Assembly: GCA_035628505.1 (NCBI GenBank)
Contig: DASPJR010000215.1
Location: forward strand, 1,808-65,807
Source: Planctomycetota bacterium
Lineage (GTDB): Bacteria; Planctomycetota; SZUA-567; H5-PLA8
Reading direction: 5' to 3'
Length of the DNA stretch: 64,000 nucleotides
Below are positions 3,775 through 55,200 of this stretch, piece after piece (position 1 is the first letter of the stretch; each line of letters starts with the position of its first letter). Below the pieces are notes generated by a model, which did no database searches, had not been told where the DNA came from, and worked only from the letters and a program-made list of their open reading frames with translations. A program made the translations under genes and the position numbers.

Positions 3775-3792
3775 GAGGGCGCGAACTCAAAC

Positions 3793-3880
3793 CAGGGTTC
3801 AGGGGCTAGGGTCTAGGGTTTAGGTCAGGGTTCAAACCCTGGACCCTAAACCCTGAACCCTGTTTTTCATTATTTCTTAT
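3793..3880. promoter_or_regulatory. Imperfect 25-bp-arm palindrome built from AGGGTT/AACCCT (TTAGGG-like) units, followed on the + strand by a T-tract. Hairpin or terminator-like element between carA and the kinase gene.
   Basis: cagggttcaggggctagggtctagggtttaggtcagggtt-ca-aaccctggaccctaaaccctgaaccctg, then tgtttttcattatttctt. Both flanking genes are on the minus strand. Confidence 0.5.
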
Positions 3881-32848: not shown

Positions 32849-35821
32849 ATGGAGGGAGTAATGACGAGCGACAACGCCCGGGAAACACGCGCCATTGTCA
32901 CCGGCATGGGGCTGGTCTGCTTCGCGCTTTTTGCCGGAGTCAGCCTTTACACCCATTCACCCTACGACGTGATGGACTACAGCGCGGCGCAGTCCCATGA
33001 AATCGAAAACAAGGCCGGACTCATCGGCGCCTGGCTCGCGCATCACGCCTTCTGTGTCTATGGCGTCGGCGCATGGGTCATCGCCGTTCTACTGCTCGTC
33101 TTTGGCGGCGTGATGTGCTCGCTGCGTTCCATGGAAGGCGCCTTCAGCAAGTCCATCGGCGCGGTGCTGCTCACGCTGCTGGTCTGCGCCTGGGCGGGAG
33201 CAATGGACGTAAAAGGCGCCGTTTCCGAGTCCTTCCCAGCAGGCCCCGGCGGATTGCTCGGTGGAACGGTGCTCGCGCCGCCGCTGGTGAGTTACTTCGG
33301 AAAAGTCGGCGTGTTCCTGATTCTCTCGGCCGCCAGCACGCTCTGCTGCCTGCTGATTGCTCCGAGCCTCACTGAATCGCTGCTGTCGATGGTTGGACGC
33401 GGCGTGGTTCAGGGGCTGCATGCGGGAGTTGATTATCTGCTGGGCAAGCACGCGACGCCGGCGACGGCTCCGTTCACGCCGGCTGAACCGGCCCTGGCGG
33501 GTGCGTCGAGTTCGGGCGTCAGCGCACGGCGGCAGGCGATCCGTGACGAAAACGTTCAAGATATCGGTTCGGAAGTTTCGCGCGTCAACATGCTGCCCGC
33601 ACCCGACACGCGCAAGATCCGCATCCCCTTTGGCGATCTGCCGGAGAAGGGCGAGAAATCAGCCGAGAAAATCGAAAAGGCCGAGAAGGGTGGGGGAGAG
33701 GTCACGCCGGCCAAGCGCGCTAAGGTGGCCGAAGCGCTGGACGAGATTGCCGCCGAGAAGCTGGCCAAGTCGCGCATTGATGTCGAAGAAGAGAAGCCGA
33801 AGGCCGAGAAGAAATCGAAGGCGGAGCTCGACGCGATCAGTGAAGCCGACGAAGCCGAGCGCCGCAAGCAGGAAGCCGTGCGCCAGGCGGAGGCCGCCGA
33901 AGCCGAACGCCTGGAGCGCGAGAAACAGGCCAAAGAGCAGTTCCTCAAAGAGCAGAAAGAGGCCAAGGCTTTTGAGAAGCTCGAGAAGGAGCGCGCCGAA
34001 AAAGAAGCCAAGCTCGCCAAGCAGCAGGAGAAATTCCAGCAGGCGATGGCCGATGCCGCTGCTGCCGCAGCGAAAGCTAACGGTACCGCCGAGAAGACCG
34101 AAGAGGGCGAAGCCGAACCCGAAAAGCCGAAGCCGCAGCTTCCCGTCAACTATGATCTGCCGAAGTTTGAACTGCTCTTTGAGAAAGATGAAGCACCGCC
34201 GCCTGACAGCCTGGGTTTGAAAGAACGCGGCGCGACGCTGATCCAGACGCTCTGGGATTTCAAGCTCGGCGCCAAGCTCGTTGGCATCCAGACCGGCCCG
34301 ACGGTGAGCATGTACGAACTCGAGCTCGATCCGGGCATCAAGGTTCAGCGCGTGCTCAGCCTGCAGGATAATCTGGCGATGGCGATGAAAGCTGAGCACG
34401 GCGTGCGCATCATCGCGCCGATTCCGGGCAAGGCGACGATCGGGATTGAAATCCCCAACAGCGAGAAGCACAAGATCTGCATGCGGCCGATCCTGGAATC
34501 ACCGCAGTTCCGCGCCAAGGCCGGCACGCTGCCGCTCATTCTCGGCCGCGACGCCGTCGGAAATCCGCTCTTCCCCGACCTGGCGACGATGCCGCATCTG
34601 CTCATCGCCGGTACGACCGGTTCCGGAAAGTCGGTCTGCTTGAACTCGATCATCTTGAGCCTGATGATTCTCAAGAAGCCGCATGAAGTGAAGATGATCC
34701 TGGTCGATCCCAAGCAGGTTGAAATGACCGACTTCAAGGGCATTCCGCATCTGCTCTGTCCCGTTGTCACCGACATGAAGCTCGCGTCGGGCGTGCTCAC
34801 CTGGGCCGTGCAGAAGATGGAACAGCGCTACGAACGTATGAGCCGCGTGGCCGTCCGCAACATCGCGACGTTCAACAAGATGACCAGCGAAGAGCGCCTT
34901 GCGCGTTTGCCGGCCGACGTTCCGCCCGACGACTACATCGACCAGATGCCGTACATCGTGATCATCGTCGACGAATTCGCCGACCTGATGATGACGGCCG
35001 GCAAGGAAATCGAGCAGGCCATCGCGCGTCTGGCGCAGAAAGCGCGCGCCGCCGGCATTCACGTCATTCTCGCCACGCAGCGCCCGAGCGCCGATGTGGT
35101 CACCGGCCTGATCAAGACCAATTTGCCCTGCCGCATCTGCTTCCAGGTGAAGAGCAAGATCGACAGCCGCATCGTTCTCGATACCGGCGGCGCCGAGAAG
35201 CTCGCGGGCCACGGCGACATGCTCTATATCGGACCCGGCAACTCGAACCTGGTTCGCGCCAAGGGCGTCTTCACGGACGACAAAGAAATCAAGCCGATCG
35301 TGCAGTTCTGCAAAGACCAGGCCGAGCCCATCTACAGCGACGAGATCGAGAAAGTGGTCGCGCAGGCGGCGCAGGGCGAAGACGGCGAGCCCATCGAAGA
35401 GAACAACCGCCAGGCTATCGAGCTCGACGAGAAGTTCGACGAAGCCGTCGAAGTGTTCCTGGCCTGCGGACGCGCCTCCACGTCGCTGCTGCAGCGCCGC
35501 ATGGGCCTGGGCTACACGCGCGCGGCGAAGCTGTGCGACCAGATGGAAGCGCGCGGCATCGTCGGTCCCGATCGCGGCGCGAAGGGCCGCGAGCTGCTTA
35601 TCAGCCAGGAAGGCTGGGACAGCTTCAAGCGCGTGCGCGCGAATAACAATGGATCAGCCTGGGGCCCGAAGGGCAGCAAAGACAACCCCGGCGCTCAGCC
35701 CGCTCCCGCGCCAGCCGCTGCAGCTGTCATGGAAGAGGAAGCCCCGAAGCCCGCGAACATCGTCGATCCGGAGCTGCTCAAGCAACTGCCCGACGAGAAC
35801 ACGCCGCGCGACGAGATCTGA
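32849..35821 (+). CDS. ftsK: DNA translocase FtsK/SpoIIIE
   Basis: N-terminal TM helices. Long K/E/A-rich linker. Walker A GTTGSGKS. Walker B region (IVIIVDEFADLM). Gamma/winged-helix C-terminus (STSLLQRRMGLGYTRAAKLCDQMEARGIV). Start MEGVMTS at 32849 with GGAGGGG RBS. ORF-track start is 32741. Confidence 0.93.
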   Translation: MEGVMTSDNARETRAIVTGMGLVCFALFAGVSLYTHSPYDVMDYSAAQSHEIENKAGLIGAWLAHHAFCVYGVGAWVIAVLLLVFGGVMCSLRSMEGAFSKSIGAVLLTLLVCAWAGAMDVKGAVSESFPAGPGGLLGGTVLAPPLVSYFGKVGVFLILSAASTLCCLLIAPSLTESLLSMVGRGVVQGLHAGVDYLLGKHATPATAPFTPAEPALAGASSSGVSARRQAIRDENVQDIGSEVSRVNMLPAPDTRKIRIPFGDLPEKGEKSAEKIEKAEKGGGEVTPAKRAKVAEALDEIAAEKLAKSRIDVEEEKPKAEKKSKAELDAISEADEAERRKQEAVRQAEAAEAERLEREKQAKEQFLKEQKEAKAFEKLEKERAEKEAKLAKQQEKFQQAMADAAAAAAKANGTAEKTEEGEAEPEKPKPQLPVNYDLPKFELLFEKDEAPPPDSLGLKERGATLIQTLWDFKLGAKLVGIQTGPTVSMYELELDPGIKVQRVLSLQDNLAMAMKAEHGVRIIAPIPGKATIGIEIPNSEKHKICMRPILESPQFRAKAGTLPLILGRDAVGNPLFPDLATMPHLLIAGTTGSGKSVCLNSIILSLMILKKPHEVKMILVDPKQVEMTDFKGIPHLLCPVVTDMKLASGVLTWAVQKMEQRYERMSRVAVRNIATFNKMTSEERLARLPADVPPDDYIDQMPYIVIIVDEFADLMMTAGKEIEQAIARLAQKARAAGIHVILATQRPSADVVTGLIKTNLPCRICFQVKSKIDSRIVLDTGGAEKLAGHGDMLYIGPGNSNLVRAKGVFTDDKEIKPIVQFCKDQAEPIYSDEIEKVVAQAAQGEDGEPIEENNRQAIELDEKFDEAVEVFLACGRASTSLLQRRMGLGYTRAAKLCDQMEARGIVGPDRGAKGRELLISQEGWDSFKRVRANNNGSAWGPKGSKDNPGAQPAPAPAAAAVMEEEAPKPANIVDPELLKQLPDENTPRDEI

Positions 35822-35895: not shown

Positions 35896-36425
35896 GCTGA
35901 GCTTGCCTGTTGTCTCATCCACTTTTCCTCGCCTTACACTAGAGGGTAGATTTGTTGCATAACAGTTTGACTAAGTCGTGGCAGCCACAGGAGTAAAAAA
36001 ATTGAAATGTTGCGCTTCGTGTTGCGCAACACACAAACCAAGGCGTGAAAACACGTTGCAACTTCGAACTTTCAATATTTAGACAAGTAGCTGAAATGTT
36101 ATATCCAGAGCGAACGGCACGCGTCACGCAAAGCTGCGAACGGATGGTTCCTAGTTCCCGGTGCTGTAGTCTAATATCTGGATGACCATCTGGGTTACTA
36201 GTTTCTGGCTCTGCATTTTGGTTTTGGCGAGACGGAGCACCGCCTGCGGTTTTGGGTTTCGGTACCGTCAGGCTGAAAGCCTGGGATATGAAAGCCCAGG
36301 GCAAAGCGAGCCGCGCGAGCGCCGCCCTGGGTCAGCGCACCTTTCGAGATCCTGAGCCCTGACAGGGCGAAATAAAGAGTAGTCTCTGATTCAAAAGTTG
36401 AGTAAGATGTCCCCGGAACTTCCCA
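35896..36425. repeat. about 520-bp direct repeat, copy 1 (left boundary of AT-rich island)
   Basis: 35899-36130 is about 95% identical to 39479-39710 (gagcttgcctgttgtctcatccacttttcctcgcc...). The middle diverges and is GGTTTT-rich. The 3' about 150 nt is again near-identical (caggctgaaagcctg...gccctggg...gagtagtctctgattcaaaagttgagtaag). Confidence 0.85.
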
Positions 36426-36707
36426 GAAGTAGGTCACTGTCCCTAGTTTCCGCCTCCCTGGTTTGAGTTAAATGATCCCTTCGACAACTCGGAGACAATC
36501 GCCTTTTCAATGCATAGAGATAGCCGCTCCGCGTCTATCCGGGCCACCCGCCCTTTTCAGAGAGTGCCACCCGCGATAAACGTTTTGTGGATGTCTAAAC
36601 CCACGCTCAGCCCATTGAAACGCGCGCGAAGTGAATTAATCTTCTTCATTGTTCCCTCCTCCTCTTGACCTTCGGACATGTGATTGCAGTCACTGAGCCC
36701 GTTATCG

Positions 36708-37196
36708 TCAATGGGGAGGGAACCTATTCACAACATCACTAAGCTCGATATGCTTCAAATTTTCTACGAATTCTGTAAATGAGGCAAAAGGTAGTGGGAC
36801 CTTATCAGGCGTATCTTCCACGGCGCCATACGGGTACCATAAACCAATAGCATACTTTTGTGGTTCCTTCATACTCATAATGACCTCCCAATCATCAAGG
36901 GTCACTGCGATACTCAGAAAATCCCTGAAACTGGGCACGTCGCTGACGATATTTTCATTTGCTAGAACTATCGAATAGATCGGCAATTTCGTTGAATCTG
37001 AAACACGGAGCCATTGCCTAATTTCCTGGCCAGTAGTCTTCAGTCTACATCGTTTTGACCAAGCACCATTATGCACAAGCAAAAATTGCTTGTAATCGTC
37101 AGGAAGGACAACGCCAAGTCGCCCTTCCACAGCACGCAGGTCGGCAGAGGTAATTTTTGGCCCACGCTCCTCAAATATGATATCGTTAGCTTTCAT
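36708..37196 (-). CDS. SMI1/KNR4 (SUKH-1) family protein. Immunity-protein-like, orphan.
   Basis: 162-aa ORF. AT-rich codon usage. GRLGVVLPDDYKQFLLVHNGAW is the SMI1/KNR4 signature. No toxin gene upstream on the same strand. Confidence 0.7.
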   Translation of the reverse strand: MKANDIIFEERGPKITSADLRAVEGRLGVVLPDDYKQFLLVHNGAWSKRCRLKTTGQEIRQWLRVSDSTKLPIYSIVLANENIVSDVPSFRDFLSIAVTLDDWEVIMSMKEPQKYAIGLWYPYGAVEDTPDKVPLPFASFTEFVENLKHIELSDVVNRFPPH

Positions 37197-37307
37197 CGAA
37201 CGTTCTCGTTAGTAAATATTCCATTTTGTTGAAGAAAGTCTAGAACCGCCCTTTCGCCAGACTACCCCATCGCGTCCCGAACAAGAATCATCTTGATCTC
37301 TCCTCTT

Positions 37308-37480
37308 GCGCGGGTGGGCACAGATACGACCGGATGGCACAGACGCGCAGCGGCGATCTGTGTCCCGCGGGCGGGTGGCATCCTTCTAGCGCTCCACATC
37401 AGCTTGCTTCCAATTCCGGAGTGGCGGGTGGCATTTGCTTGCACTCCGATCGCGGCTTGCGTCCGTTCAAGGGTGCCACT
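37308..37480. repeat. REP-like palindromic cluster (GCGGGTGGCA units)
   Basis: Four GGGTGGCA/TGCCACCC units. The 57-nt unit 37424-37480 is about 88% identical to 38621-38676. Further copies at 36541-36576, 37733-37762, 39395-39475 and 40020-40036. Confidence 0.7.
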
Positions 37481-37870
37481 GAGCTGCGGAGCAGATCAGT
37501 GCGATCGGCGGACGGATGCTTCCAAGCGCTACCGTGCTGGATCGTCCACTAACCTTTCATCGAGTCGTCAACGCTCAACGATTGATTGTCGCGCTTGCCG
37601 AGCACCAGTCACGCGAAATTGGACCAGCGCCAGTCGGCTGCGGACTTCACCAACCGCCGCTTCACTAGATTGTTGTGACAGTACTCCGCTTTCTCAATCG
37701 CCTTTTTCATCGACCAGATGTTGAGGTCGTGCGCGGCTGGTGGCACTTTGTGCCACCCGCGGGTCCGTTTTACGTTCCCTTATCGGGTGAAATGTCAAAT
37801 GACGATGCTAAGATCGCAAGACAGAATGCAGAGAAACTTCAGAGTATTAGACATTTGAGGGTGATGAAGC

Positions 37871-38602
37871 ATGTGGATATTCTTGGTAGTAGCAATCATT
37901 CTTTTTTCGAATGCAAATGCTCAGGATATTTTTAGCGGAGAGATGTCTGCAATAGGAAATGAGGCGATTCATTACGAACTGCTAAAGAAAAGGGTAGATC
38001 TTTGGCGCGGGGCCCCATTGTATCAAAGAATCGCTGCCGCCCAAGAAGCTGCTTCGTATTTGACTGATCTCAAAAGGATTCGCGAAACCGGAAACTTTCG
38101 AGGTAGAAGTGAACATGACCTTGAAATTGTCGCAGGTCGCGCAGCGCTTGTGATAACCGGACTAATCGGATTGACTTTGCCTTCAATAACTCGGGAATCT
38201 ACCCAGGATGAAGTGAAAGCATTTCCTGGAATTGCTGCAGCGTACTGCGATGGACTAATCAGGGGACTTGTTGAAACACGGCAAATGTTCGGCGCTGTTC
38301 TTTCAAGTGAGGTGAAAAAAAGGGTGTTAGAATTGAAGGAGGGGTATAATGCTGCGCGACATAAGGATGCTTCTGAGGATGAACTAATCAAGGCTGTCGA
38401 CTCGGCGTTGGGCTTTCTGGCTCTTCAGAATCCAATCGGATGTACTAAGGAAGAGATCGAAGCTTTTTTTGGACCACTTTCGGCAATCGACAAAGATAAT
38501 TATAAGGTAAATGTTTTAACCAGGCTAGGTGGGATTTCTCTTTGTTTTACCATCAAAGGTGATGTAGTGACAAAAGTATTACTTCAGAGCTCGGGAAAAT
38601 GA
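37871..38602 (+). CDS. hypothetical secreted protein (AT-rich island cargo)
   Basis: 243-aa ORF. Signal peptide MWIFLVVAIILFSNANA. About 43% GC. No recognisable domain. Confidence 0.6.
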   Translation: MWIFLVVAIILFSNANAQDIFSGEMSAIGNEAIHYELLKKRVDLWRGAPLYQRIAAAQEAASYLTDLKRIRETGNFRGRSEHDLEIVAGRAALVITGLIGLTLPSITRESTQDEVKAFPGIAAAYCDGLIRGLVETRQMFGAVLSSEVKKRVLELKEGYNAARHKDASEDELIKAVDSALGFLALQNPIGCTKEEIEAFFGPLSAIDKDNYKVNVLTRLGGISLCFTIKGDVVTKVLLQSSGK

Positions 38603-38620
38603 CGAAAAACTAGGGCAGTC

Positions 38621-38795
38621 AGGCGGGTGGCATTTGCTTGCGTTCCGATCACGGCTTGCCTCCGTTCAGGGGTGCCATGTCTGAATAGGTTCCCGGGTCA
38701 AGGCGGGTGGCATCTTTCTGCCGCTCTTGCATCAGCTTGCTCCCGATTTTGGGTGCCACCCGTCTCGCCGTTGAGACGGGTGCGGGTTGGGTGTA
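38621..38795. repeat. REP-like palindromic cluster, including the left inverted repeat of the RAYT unit
   Basis: ggcgggtggcat twice and gggtgccacccgtctcgccgttgagacgggtgcggg at 38751-38786. The latter is the reverse complement of 39389-39424 with one compensatory stem change. Confidence 0.7.
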
Positions 38796-38810
38796 GCATC
38801 CTCAAGCGCT

Positions 38811-39381
38811 ATGGATCAACCCGTTCCGCATCGCAAGCGCAACAAGAAATACAATATCCCGGGGCACGCTCATTTTCTGACTTTTTCATGTTACCGCCGC
38901 ATGGCGTTTCTCACCAACGACACGTTCCGCCGGTAGCTGGCAGACTCCATCCGCGCAAAGTGTGACGAGTTTTACTACGCGTTGTGGGCGTATGTGTTCA
39001 TGCCTGAGCACGTTCATCTGTTGCTCAAGCCGCGCCGTGAGATGTACGAATCTGGCCAAATTCGAGCAGAGCTTTAAACTTTCTTTTTCGCGTAAGCTGA
39101 TTGTTCAATTGTCGCGAGTGAATTCGCCCCTGCTGCAGTCGCTGCGCGTCAAGAACGGGTACCGCGTCTGGCAGGAGGGCGGTGGACACGATCTGAACAT
39201 CTGGTCGATGAAGAAGGCGATTGAAAAAGCAGAGTACTGTCACGGAAATCCGGTGAAGCGGCGGCTGGTGAAATCAGCGGAGGAATGGCGCTGGTCGAGT
39301 TTCTGCTGGCTGGTGCAGGGGAAGCGCGAGGATGCGCCGCTACGCGTTGATGTATGGGACGAAACTCTTCTGGAAGGCTGA
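38811..39381 (+). pseudogene. REP-associated tyrosine transposase (RAYT, IS200-like Y1 transposase), decayed
   Basis: MDQPVPHRKRNKKYNIPGHAHFLTFSCYRR...FRR, then in-frame TAG at 38934, then LADSIRAKCDEFYYALWAYVFMPEHVHLLLKPRR (the HVHLL Y1-transposase motif), then a frameshift near 39075 into the ORF-track frame (...YRVWQEGGGHDLNIWSMKK...HGNPVKRRLVKSAEEWRWSS). Confidence 0.75.
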
Positions 39382-39477
39382 GCGCCAACCCGCACCCGTC
39401 CCAACGGCGGGACGGGTGGCACCCGAAATTAACGAGCGCAAGCTGATGTGGGAGGTGGTAGAAAGATGCCACCCGCC

Positions 39478-39995
39478 TGAGCTTGCCTGTTGTCTCATCC
39501 ACTTTTCCTCGCCTTACACTAGAGGGTAGATTTGTTGCATAACAGTTTGACTAAGTCGTGGTAGCCACAGGAGTAAAAAAATTGAAATGTTGCGCTTCGT
39601 GTTGCGCAACACGCAAACCGAGGGGTGAAAATACGTTGCAACTTCGAACTTTCAATATTTAGACAAGTAGCTGAAATGTTATATCCAGTGCGAACGGCAC
39701 GCGTCACGCAAAGCCGCGAAGACGCAAAGAACGGCGCCGACGCGTCCTTGGTTTCTCGTTTTTGTTTTTGGTTTCTAGTTCCGGTTTCGGTTTTGGTTTT
39801 TGGTGAGACGGAGCACCGCCGGGGGTTTTGGGTTTCGCTGCCCTTCAGGCTGAAAGCCTGAAATACGAAAGCCCAGGGCAAAGCGAGCCGCGCGAGCGCC
39901 GCCCTGGGTCAGCGCCCCTTTCGAGATCCTGAGCCCTGACAGGGCGAAATAAAGAGTAGTCTCTGATTCAAAAGTTGAGTAAGGTGACCCCTGCA
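39478..39995. repeat. about 520-bp direct repeat, copy 2 (right boundary of island)
   Basis: See copy 1. Confidence 0.85.
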
Positions 39996-40105
39996 TGGGC
40001 GCAAGCCGCGAGTAGAGTGCAAGCTGATGCCACCCGCCAAGGAACTCGGAAAAATGCCGCTCTTCGGAGCGGCTTTTTTGCCGGTCCAGCGTATACTTGT
40101 GCGGC

Positions 40106-52267: not shown

Positions 52268-55200
52268 ATGCGTCAACGGTTGGCCCTTAGGTCCGTGTTA
52301 GCGTTTTGCATCGCGCTTGGACTCGGACGCGTGTTGTTCGCGCCCAGTTCCGCGCCCAACGCTAAGCTCGCTGCTACTCCGGTTTCTACGACTCCCGCGC
52401 CCGCGGTAGCCGTATCAACGGCAGCGACGCAGACGGCTGCGCCGCAACAGACTCCGCTGCCATTCCGCAGCGTTGATCGCCAGTTCAAGAAAGTGGCCGG
52501 CGGCGTGCAGAACGAAAATGCGCGCATGACCCACTTCCTGGCCACCGACGTTCTGGAAGGTGTGCTGCATACCGCCCCGGGTCACAAGGATGCTTTTGTG
52601 CGCTGGGTTCCGCAGACTCAGGAATTGCGCCGCGGACAGTCGACGGTTGCGCTGCTGGGCAAAACCCGATCGTCAAAAGCGCAGATTGAAGACGTTGGGG
52701 GTCTCAGCCGCGTCAGCTACGCCGGGACTTATCCGGACACCGATGAACGCATGTACATCCGCCCGGACGGCGGAATGGAACACGACTTCCTGCTGAGCAC
52801 GCCGCCGCTGGGCATCGATGGCAGCTATACGCTCGCGTACACCGGCCGTCTGTCCATGAGCAGTGATCTGACGCTGTGGGACGGCAGGCAGCAGATCACC
52901 AAATCACACACCACGCGCGGAGAGATCCGCTTCAAGAACCGCCAGGGCAATACAGTTTTCTGCCTGCGCAAGCCACTGGCCTACGACGCGTCGGTCACTG
53001 CCGCTGACGGTACGCTCGATGCCGAAAAGCAGAGCAGCGAAGCGAATATCCGCTGCGCGACCGGTCTGTCTTATCACATCGATTTCGATGACTCCGGCGT
53101 CACCCTCGCGATTCTTACGCCCGGCAGCTGGCTGGCTGCGCCTGAACGCGCCTACCCCGTCGTTATCGATCCGAACTTCGGCCCCTTTGGTCTGGCCGAC
53201 GGCGATCCGCCGATCTACACCGGCGTCTCAGGTTCCGATACGCTGATCCCGGCCGACACGGGCGGCGTTCCGCTGGTGATTGTTGATACCTGCCCCAACA
53301 AGCCGGACAACGGCTACGGCATTATTCCCATGCCTTTTGCGTTCAACTACTACAACACAAACCATCCGGTCGGCTCGCCGCTTTACGTTCACATCGACGG
53401 CTTCGCTGGCTGGGAGCAGCCGCGGCCGTTCCCGCAGAATCCCAATCCGTGTCAGGACACCGACAACACGCAGATTCCATCGGCCGGCTATCCTGACAAT
53501 GCGTTCTTTGCGTACTGGGACGACCTGCGCTTCTCCACGACGCCCGGCAGCGGCATCTACTATTTCATCGACGGCGTAGCTCCGACGCGGCGCCTGGTGA
53601 TCGAATGGTTCAAGATGGGCTACTCGCGCGCCAACAACAACGAAGTGATCAGCTTCAATCTGGTGCTGTACGAGTGCGAAGACAAAATTCAGATCATTAT
53701 CGGTCAGACCAACGAAACCGAACGCGGTCTGGCAACGGTTGGAATCGAAGATCCGACAGGCGCCATTGGCATCCAGTATGAATTCAATTCCGCCCTCGGC
53801 GGCGCGCTGCTGGGAAATAATCAGGGCGGCCAGTTCAATCCGTTCCTCGGCGGCGGCTTCGGTGGATTCGGTGGATTCGGCGGCTTTGGCGGCGGTGGTT
53901 TTGGTGGCGGAGGCCTGGGCTTTGGAGGCTTCGGCGGATTTGGCGGCGGCGGATTTGGCGGCGGCTTCGGCGGCGGCGCTGGCGGCGCGGTACCGAACAA
54001 CAACACGCCGAACGTCGGCAACACCAGTCAGCCGATTACGCCCGGCACGTCGCTGGTCTTTCAGCGCTCAGCGCTGGGACTGCTGACCGTGACGTCTACG
54101 CCGCGCACCGGCTGTATCCCGCATACTGTCTGCTTTGAGTCGACGATCACCATTCCCGTTTCGTCCTGTACGACAGCCGGGCAGACCACGACTACGACCA
54201 CGACCGGCGGCGGCGGGTTGGCTGGCGGGATCGGCGGTGGAGGCGGCGGTACCGGAACCGGCACAGGCGGCGGCGGACCCAACAACAAGTCTTTCGGCTT
54301 TAACTGGGTGTTCGGTGATAATGCCGAAGGCTTCACTCCCAATGTCTGCCACACCTGGGTGACGCCAGGCGTTTACCGTGCACAGCTCACGATTACCGAC
54401 GAGTTCGGCGTGCCGCTGACCCTGGACTTCCTGATCCAGATCTGCGACGTGCCGGACGTAGTGATCTCGGCAACCCCGCAGGGCGGCGTGGCCCCGCTGA
54501 TCGTGGATCTTGACGCCTTTGCGGCGTCAGCCAGCGTGACCATCACCGGCAACCCGCTGTGGGTCGTCGACCGCTTGACGGCCAAGGCTGAGGCCGGAAT
54601 TTTTACGACCATCGGCACCACGCAAGGCACCCCGGTGCAGGCGCATCTGGATACGCCTGGCATCTACCGCGTGACAGTCACCTTCACGGGAACGGATACG
54701 ACCAGCGGCCTGCCGACGACGGGAACGGGCACGGTCTACATCTTCGTCGCGGCTCCGACTGATGTGATTGAGGATTCGCTGGTCATTACCGAATCGCGCG
54801 TGGTCGTCGACTGGGCTGGAAAGCGCGACGGCCCGGATCCGGACGGCTTGTCCACCAGCCCTGGCGGCGCCGGCAACACAACTCCGGGCCAGGGCTTTCC
54901 CGACAATCCCGAAAACGATACGCTGTTCGTTCGCGGCTTCCTGAGCCTGCCTGGAATCGGCGAGTCGGCTCTGCTCGGCCGCCGTGTACAGGTGACCCTC
55001 AACGGCGTGGAAGCGATCTTCGACGGCATCCTAGATGCCGCCGGCACCGCAACCATGAATGATCCTGTGACCGGTCGCAGTGGTGTATTCAACATTTCGC
55101 TTCCATCAGGTGCCTTCTACTGCAACGTCAAGCGCAGCCTCTACACGCTGCTCGGTGTTTCAGACACGACCGAAGTGCGGCTGCTGCCGGCATTCATCGG

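Follow-up and report, generated by a model that had tools for sequence, protein, structure and literature searches.

A probable relic of a REP/RAYT element with composite terminal repeats in a Planctomycetota genome

The 64-kb stretch of Planctomycetota DNA analyzed here (the window; contig DASPJR010000215.1) belongs to a third-party-annotation (TPA) metagenome-assembled genome (MAG), with window proteins HYG78095-78099 and ENA assembly ERZ27257313 for the source sample, and very probably contains the dead, non-autonomous relic of a REP/RAYT element, or REPtron. In such an element the gene for a REP-associated tyrosine transposase (RAYT) stands between repetitive extragenic palindromes (REPs), whose hairpins would serve as single-stranded DNA (ssDNA) recognition structures of an HUH/Tyr nuclease. 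The window element (WIN) is a 776-bp unit (38702-39477, in coordinates of the whole stretch) composed of the RAYT gene and two ~90-nt terminal inverted repeats (TIRs). Each repeat carries a GGCGGGTGGCA motif at its outward tip and a 36-nt REP hairpin at its inward end, and comprises three conserved blocks, namely, the outer GGCGGGTGGCA head, a CATCAGCTTGC box, and the hairpin. The window was compared with stretches from other contigs, genomes, or metagenomes, given here as L-numbered loci. The parts of the element are as follows.

38702-38750, plus strand: outer part of the 5' TIR, with head GGCGGGTGGCAT, a poorly conserved spacer, and the conserved box CATCAGCTTGC; inverted match to 39425-39477
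38751-38786, plus strand: 5' REP hairpin, with foot GGGTGC, 10-bp stem CACCCGTCTC/GAGACGGGTG (T:A at position 9), loop GCCGTT, and tail CGGG
38811-39381, plus strand: apparent RAYT (TnpA_REP-type HUH/Y1) pseudogene, with HVH codons (39009-39017) and catalytic Tyr codon (39235-39237) kept
39389-39424, minus strand: 3' REP hairpin, an inverted copy with C:G at stem position 9 (CACCCGTCCC/GGGACGGGTG), the variant also found on the 3' side of paralogs L172 and L210
39425-39477, minus strand: outer part of the 3' TIR, with spacer, GCAAGCTGATG box, and head ATGCCACCCGCC

The left repeat, GGGTGCCACCCGTCTCGCCGTTGAGACGGGTGCGGG, recurs as its reverse complement at 39389-39424 with exactly two mismatches, where shuffles predict no such match. 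The two mismatched bases pair with each other as stem pair 9, which reads T:A in the left copy and C:G in the right, confirming the inverted 36-bp hairpins with a compensated stem substitution, and their positions, as described in the initial annotation. By hand calculation, the chance that two random changes in 36 nt would strike one stem pair and leave it paired is ~0.005 to 0.016. The 10-bp stem (CACCCGTC[T/C]C / G[A/G]GACGGGTG) encloses the loop GCCGTT, and the predicted hairpin is identical for both versions, with energies of -11.9 and -12.9 kcal/mol (z ~ -2.8). Inverted symmetry extends beyond the 36 nt, spanning ~38701-38790 and ~39385-39478 as nested inverted matches. The hairpins have one of the properties by which REPs are recognized, being imperfect palindromes of 20 to 40 nt that form a stem-loop with covarying pairing, and cognate REP hairpins flank the gene in inverted orientation, the layout characteristic of RAYTs and one shared by the relatives of this gene.

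Read in frame 3 (38811-38936 onward) and then in frame 1 (to 39381), the gene encodes a 189-aa protein. The repaired open reading frame (ORF) scored 83.3 bits against the NCBIfam model NF047646, "REP-associated tyrosine transposase" (cut-off, 80), and 30.4 against Pfam Y1_Tnp (PF01797; threshold, 23), and fell below the cut-off of the IS200 model NF033573 (29.7 versus 55 bits). Residues H67, H69, Y143, N147, and P148 are invariant among aligned homologs, the tyrosine lying in EYCHGNPV (Y-x-x-x-N-P), and the repaired protein keeps the HVH motif and the catalytic tyrosine of Y1 transposases. A homolog search returned 2,750 database matches, the best of which is intact and 91% identical. The window protein is 90 to 91% identical to the intact paralog P0001, and the AlphaFold model of that paralog (pLDDT, a per-residue confidence score, of 91.5) has as its top match in the PDB the Escherichia coli TnpA_REP structure 4ER8 (E = 2e-9; TM [template modeling] score, 0.68/0.77), with the transposases of IS608 and ISDra2 ranking lower; 4ER8 was also the sole PDB match by sequence. 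The REP-RAYT-REP arrangement proposed in the initial annotation is therefore borne out by the family score, the HVH and Tyr residues, the fold of the paralog, and the inverted, covarying hairpins of relatives described below.

Two lesions interrupt the gene, and the window copy accordingly lacks the intact reading frame of a functional enzyme. An amber codon, TAG, at 38934-38936 replaces the Trp codon TGG that homologs have in an invariant alignment context, as had been suggested from the sequence; the frameshift that was placed at about 39075 is also real, but its cause, one extra A in TAC-GAA at 39048-39050, lies at 39049/50 (intact copies have TACGATCTGG), and 39075-39077 is the TAA at which the shifted frame terminates. 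Unique replacements at conserved sites, such as W39F, also mark this copy. The ratio of nonsynonymous to synonymous divergence (dN/dS) against two intact paralogs is 0.09 to 0.10, at a synonymous divergence (dS) of ~0.47, and 32 of 40 window-specific substitutions fall at third codon positions, which argues for purifying selection during most of the history of the gene and for a recent inactivation. These sequence comparisons suggest that the window RAYT is a pseudogene that died recently.

A protein-guided scan of GTDB yielded 80 related RAYT loci, nearly all from Planctomycetota, with the best match among GTDB representative genomes being 58% identical. Most of the 80 bear inverted flanking repeats consisting of a GGGTGGC/GGTGCC foot and a hairpin whose stem varies by lineage. 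In the nearer clade the REPs take the form GGTGCCAC-stem-loop-stem-GTGC, with stems that include CCGTCTC, TGATCTC, TGGTCTC, TGGTCTGC, TGGCTGC, TGACCTG, GGAGCAG, and GGATG.... For the analysis of covariation, 13 distinct flanking REPs of related RAYTs were anchored on foot and tail, without use of pairing in their selection. In this set 96.2% of stem cells were paired, versus 28 to 37% when the 3' partner was slid; all seven variable stem pairs were altered on both sides (31 cells), and none of 500 shuffles reached the observed covariation. L208 provides a second case, in which the hairpins on either side of one gene differ by a compensated pair, C:G against A:T.

Pattern scanning of metagenomes with the inner 14 nt left free gave at least 122 matches in at least 119 stretches, ~100 of the matches being unrelated coding sequence, and the counts that follow are likewise lower bounds. 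At least 24 matches are copies of the family, two of them recovered only by a slightly looser pattern, and the inner stem is perfectly paired in all. Their variation is limited to the loop (GCCGTT, GCTGTT, or GCTTTT) or to the compensated C:G, with no half-step pair among the at least 24 metagenome copies listed; the inner sequence of the window's 5' hairpin is identical in at least 17 matches. Identity to paralogs, at a dS of ~0.47, was 0.89 to 0.97 in the hairpin, 0.92 to 1.0 in the outer head, 0.54 to 0.80 in the spacer (0.54 to 0.61 on the 5' side against L210 and L206, where homology starts at the head), and 0.05 to 0.15 outside the head. Constraint on pairing is thus supported by three independent lines of evidence, namely, the covariation in flanking REPs, the metagenome copies, and the identities by block. 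The hairpin pairing, the foot, and the outer head are constrained, and the spacer drifts. The initial annotation had deduced selection on the hairpin from the compensated pair itself, and while the constraint holds, that pair represents one old, inherited event and not a local one.

The accession block of the window proteins also holds HYG73930 (P0001), which is intact and lies at L210; HYG73809 (P0122), also intact and identically encoded by L172; and HYG75699 (P0003), which is frameshifted and lies at L206. The intact paralogs possess HVHLL and the catalytic Tyr, so that the intact relative whose existence the initial annotation proposed to check was found, apparently in the same MAG. L001 is 99.8% identical to the window, and the element-bearing contigs come from the same ENA assembly as L001. 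At L210 the 5' REP has T:A and the 3' REP C:G at pair 9, with the outer head ending at 860; ~1.4 kb past this intact copy lies a ~280-bp, internally deleted mini-copy (L210:2200-2480) with both ends kept, which retains the 5' REP, the first ~55 nt and last ~80 nt of the gene, and the 3' REP with its spacer, and which looks like a derivative resembling a miniature inverted-repeat transposable element (MITE). The L206 copy has decayed REPs and, at its 3' end, the half-step TCCC...GAGA. Besides the window copy, the same MAG thus seems to contain a pair of intact paralogs, a copy with a frameshift, and the mini-copy with its internal deletion, and dS between copies ranges from 0.28 to 0.48.

The more distant relatives L137, L202, and L203 have T:A-type stems on both sides. 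The asymmetry of T:A on the 5' side and C:G on the 3' side is ancestral to the paralog group, whose proteins are 78 to 92% identical, and accompanied the unit when it was copied as a whole; because paralogs have it in common, it was inherited and did not arise at the window locus. Similarity among WIN, L210, L172, and L137 stops exactly after ...CCACCCGCC, and that of L143 likewise terminates exactly at the head.

The hairpin family can disperse. Three other contigs that are assigned to this MAG or to its sample carry about six further hairpin copies, and other metagenomes, notably Ga0163144, contain at least 20. Among the matches listed, 17 of 20 loci lack a RAYT and carry identical hairpins as singletons, and ~11 of 18 metagenome copies lie between long ORFs. 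Cognate REPs were found 4 to 9 kb from the gene in some of the 20-kb loci of relatives. The repeat is therefore not restricted to this locus, and the past REP/RAYT activity in this genome postulated in the initial annotation finds its evidence on other contigs, since within the window the family is confined to a 4-kb island. In the window there is no REPIN (REP doublet moving as one unit), that is, no short-spaced inverted pair, the sole inverted pair enclosing the 594-nt gene region; one metagenome contig (L120) has two REPs ~90 nt apart.

On the model of E. coli TnpA_REP, the HUH/Tyr nuclease would bind the folded hairpin on ssDNA, would read the conserved foot (GGTGC-CAC...GTG-C), and would cut and rejoin DNA via a 5'-phosphotyrosine link. 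The two window hairpins could presumably now be processed only in trans, by intact paralogs with nearly identical hairpins. We infer binding, cleavage, the strand used, and trans-action by homology, and several points weigh against the REPtron reading. The mechanism is transferred from a protein with only ~21% identity. REP feet are defined as GT[AG]G (or CGTC) (PMC6006769, PMC3733652), and neither form is present at the window hairpins, whose foot is GGGTGC-CAC, i.e., GTGC. The 64-kb window contains two hairpin copies, both at the gene flanks, too few to indicate high-copy dispersal in this genome. REPs of intact RAYTs have one mismatch at stem position 4 (L210:136-167, L210:775-806, and L203:1541-1572), where the conserved CAC/GTG foot gives way to the variable stem; because the REPs of the intact L210 copy are mismatched and those of the dead copy perfect, perfect pairing is no simple marker of activity. 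Finally, the paralogs are assigned to one genome by accession numbering and a shared sample, and a MAG can mix strains.

Another explanation is that the gene is intact in the organism and that both lesions are errors of MAG assembly or consensus. The source is indeed a MAG, and the remainder of the gene looks selected (dN/dS, 0.1). However, the extra A lies outside any homopolymer run, and a 114-aa NCBI ORF (P0121) and a 129-aa product of a JGI contig (P0125) both read ...RCTNLAKFEQ over the junction, which is possible only with the insertion. The unique replacements at conserved sites, together with the independent frameshift of the L206 copy, also disagree with this explanation, which we regard as the least probable of those considered here. 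Only slightly less improbable is the proposal that the hairpins are mainly expression signals, a promoter or operator on the 5' side and an mRNA-stabilizing or terminating stem on the 3' side, and not transposase substrates. A promoter-like TTGAGA-17-TAGCAT (38771-38799) does overlap the 3' arm of the 5' hairpin, with its -35 element inside the arm; the TAGCATCC stretch is conserved in paralogs, and the change from T:A to C:G converts TTGAGA into TTGGGA on the 3' copy. Against these observations, the promoter scan matched a sigma-70 consensus, which may not apply to Planctomycetota, and returned five sites versus 2.7 expected; no T-run follows either hairpin, leaving a terminator role unsupported; and copies of this hairpin stand in either orientation between genes that are unrelated to one another, far from any RAYT.

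A third explanation partly overlaps the preferred one. The element could be an insertion sequence (IS)-like transposon, self-mobilizing now or until recently, with ~90-nt ends that are ordinary TIRs alike by descent or gene conversion and a compensated pair that arose by quasi-palindrome template switching and not by selection. The contexts of four to five copies are indeed unrelated, and their homology extends up to the outer heads and no farther; the 5'/3' hairpin asymmetry travels with the unit, no flanking target duplication was seen on reading the junctions, as expected of HUH enzymes, and the compensated pair is a single event. But the copies are old by their dS, unlike recently transposed IS copies, and extragenic singleton hairpins exist without the gene. 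Stems covary over many lineages while foot and head remain fixed, for which template switching at a single locus offers no explanation. We therefore find an IS-like transposon unlikely, though clearly less so than the two preceding alternatives, and favor the REPtron relic.

On a further reading, the 776-bp head-to-head unit might represent a RAYT that still copies itself whole, with differentiated left (T:A) and right (C:G) hairpins. Its real ends, or the sites of cleavage, would then be located at the outer GGCGGGTGGCA heads, ~50 nt away from the hairpins. We offer this only as a tentative suggestion, on balance doubtful. If true, such a unit would be intermediate between IS200/IS605 insertion sequences and domesticated single-copy RAYTs and would contradict the published view that REPtrons do not copy, or transpose, as units (PMC6006769).

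The outer head has a distribution of its own. Its GCGGGTGGCA motif occurs eight times in the window, versus 0.26 expected, with all occurrences between 36565 and 40037; each terminal repeat has it as its outermost block, at ~50 nt from the foot of the hairpin, and it also heads 53- to 56-nt units. The initial annotation had noted related units scattered near these positions, and the units are there, but they are the hairpin-less outer terminal motif and not copies of the hairpin. Considered as hairpins themselves, the 53- to 56-nt GGCGGGTGGCA units were rejected, their folds being no better than those of shuffles (z = +0.9 to +1.3). The head is retained in relatives with changed stems (L209, L003, L203, and L004), which indicates that it does not act by pairing with the stem. 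Pairing of the outer head with the hairpin foot, as guide and cleavage site in the manner of IS608, was also rejected, since in L209 and L003 the stems changed while the head did not, giving two to three mismatches; the head/foot complement in the window is an exact 9-mer (CGGGTGGCA / TGCCACCCG), of which only the 6-nt TGCCAC/GTGGCA is supported. In distant relatives GGGTGG stands directly at the hairpin foot, and in the window clade the foot is GTGC and a GTGG-containing motif lies at the outer tip. GTGG at the foot falls within the canonical GT[AG]G pattern of Quentin et al. (PMC6006769).

Additional relics of such elements in the island are the following.

36542-36574, minus strand: two tandem head motifs, GCGGGTGGCC and GCGGGTGGCA
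37308-37369, plus strand: decayed third REP type, GGGTGGCA-CAGATAG...CTATCTG-TGTCCCGCG
37371-37502, plus strand: end of a second, truncated element, with a 53-nt unit, a 56-nt unit, and then a second REP type, beside a 72%-identical RAYT fragment
37567-37737, minus strand: 3' fragment of a second RAYT copy, residues ~124-180 (tblastn, 72% identity to P0001)
37736-37767, minus strand: head palindrome, GGTGGCAC-TTT-GTGCCACC plus GCGGGTGGCA, located where the RAYT fragment breaks off; hairpin of -14.1 kcal/mol (z = -3.1)
38622-38677, plus strand: hairpin-less 56-nt unit, GGCGGGTGGCA-N37-GGGTGCCA, just outside the 5' end of the element; 91% identical to 37423-37478 and inverted relative to 39987-40038
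39987-40038, minus strand: inverted copy of the hairpin-less 56-nt unit, closing the island beside a HEAT-repeat gene

The second REP type (37472-37502) reads GGTGCCAC-TGAGCTGC-GGA-GCAGATCA-GTGC, with the foot and tail of the first type and a different stem, and the RAYT fragment beside it matches 39187-39350 in inverted orientation over 164 nt, with 79% complementarity. The third type is found intact (GCGGGTGGCA-CAGATAG-loop-CTATCTG-TGTCCCGCG) twice in L206 (10421-10520 and 11160-11260), where one copy abuts a type-1 REP and the other adjoins a RAYT-like gene 31% identical to that of the window.

The island (35897-40040) is low in GC, 50 to 52% versus ~60%, and is bordered by an FtsK-like gene (ending at 35821) and a HEAT-repeat gene (40097). 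It includes an SMI1/KNR4 (SUKH) gene at 36708-37196 on the minus strand and an ORF of 243 aa (37871-38602) without a family match. A direct repeat of ~515 nt brackets the island (35897-36414 and 39477-39991; 95 to 97% identical), with its second copy beginning exactly at the end of the outer head of the RAYT element; it has no convincing ORF and includes the palindrome CGTGTTGCGCAACACG. An Rfam scan of the window at gathering thresholds gave no matches; near-threshold matches to RF01687, the Acido-Lenti-1 small RNA (sRNA), lie in each repeat (36269-36331 and 39846-39908, both on the minus strand), with 33.2 and 34.6 bits against a gathering score of 37 (E ~3e-5 to 7e-5). Other assemblies break in the island, and L001 begins at 39329, within the RAYT gene.

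In a related Planctomycetota MAG (L011:114-1005), a RAYT that is 51% identical and has its own REP is convergent with ftsK and immediately downstream of it, the 3' end of this ftsK being 84% identical in DNA; the position next to ftsK may be a recurrent site for RAYT elements. RAYT copies at L202, L203, and L206 adjoin small genes without an assigned function (DUF4256, DUF4304, and a small ORF that is unannotated), and the window copy lies near the SUKH immunity-type gene, so a link between RAYT copies and variable small-gene cassettes is possible. Elsewhere in the window, an inverted repeat of 33 nt (3789-3866; 88% complementary, arms 12 nt apart) with GGGTT/CCCTAA-like units lies between two convergent long ORFs, and a degenerate tandem array of GGC/TTC-rich units (53852-53989) encodes Gly-Gly-Phe repeats inside a 1206-aa ORF.

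This locus adds a documented REP/RAYT clade from the Planctomycetota, a phylum hardly sampled in REP work. For annotation, the element accounts for a low-GC, repeat-rich island beside ftsK and for the contig breaks there in other assemblies. With diverged copies that share one hairpin type, separable conserved blocks, an inherited left/right difference, and a GTGC foot, the family constitutes a natural experiment that could help to define what a RAYT reads in its substrate and whether some units still move whole.

In all essentials the element conforms to the REPtron/RAYT concept as published (Nunvar 2010; Bertels & Rainey 2011; Messing 2012; Di Nocera 2013; Bertels 2017; Quentin 2018). It differs from published REPtrons in its Planctomycetota clade, its GTGC foot, its ~90-nt composite ends with an outer head, its paralogs sharing one REP type, and what appears to be copying at the level of the unit. 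The E. coli TnpA_REP/REPtron (RAYT Group 2; subclass 2.2 of Quentin et al. 2018; PDB 4ER8), the best structural match, shares the HUH/Y1 nuclease of ~165 to 190 aa with Y-x-x-x-N-P and the position of the gene between inverted REP hairpins. TnpA_REP cleaves and rejoins REPs (PMC3479197; PMC6006769), with the hairpin and conserved foot as the recognition element, a role that is predicted here. The E. coli foot, however, is GTAG, in place of GGGTGC(CAC), and the window element adds the conserved outer head ~50 nt from the hairpin, which extends its repeats to ~90 nt; several diverged gene copies of the window family use one REP type, and the window copy itself is dead. That one genome can carry several diverged RAYT paralogs is already known from Group 3 (PMC5581495), and the Group 3 RAYTs of Pseudomonas with their REPINs (Bertels & Rainey 2011; Bertels et al. 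2017) likewise show duplication, loss, and stems that coevolve with the gene. There, each paralog has its own REPIN family of hundreds of copies, whereas here three or four paralogs share one hairpin, and the 64-kb window has no REPIN doublets.

The TnpA proteins of the IS200/IS605 family (IS608 and ISDra2) have the same catalytic fold (structure ranks 2 to 30), and their elements also have subterminal hairpins, distinguishable on left and right, and make no target duplication. In contrast, the window protein falls short of the IS200 model, its hairpins are inverted where those of IS608 lie on one strand, its copies are old and diverged, and no tnpB was found at the window element. TIRYTs, RAYT-like genes with long TIRs (Di Nocera et al. 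2013, PMC3733652), likewise have ~90-nt inverted repeats with homology ending at the tips; in the window element, unlike TIRYTs, each repeat has as its inner third a genuine REP hairpin, which is also found alone elsewhere. With a REP hairpin inside a ~90-nt TIR, the window element thus combines the REP-flanked and TIR-flanked layouts.

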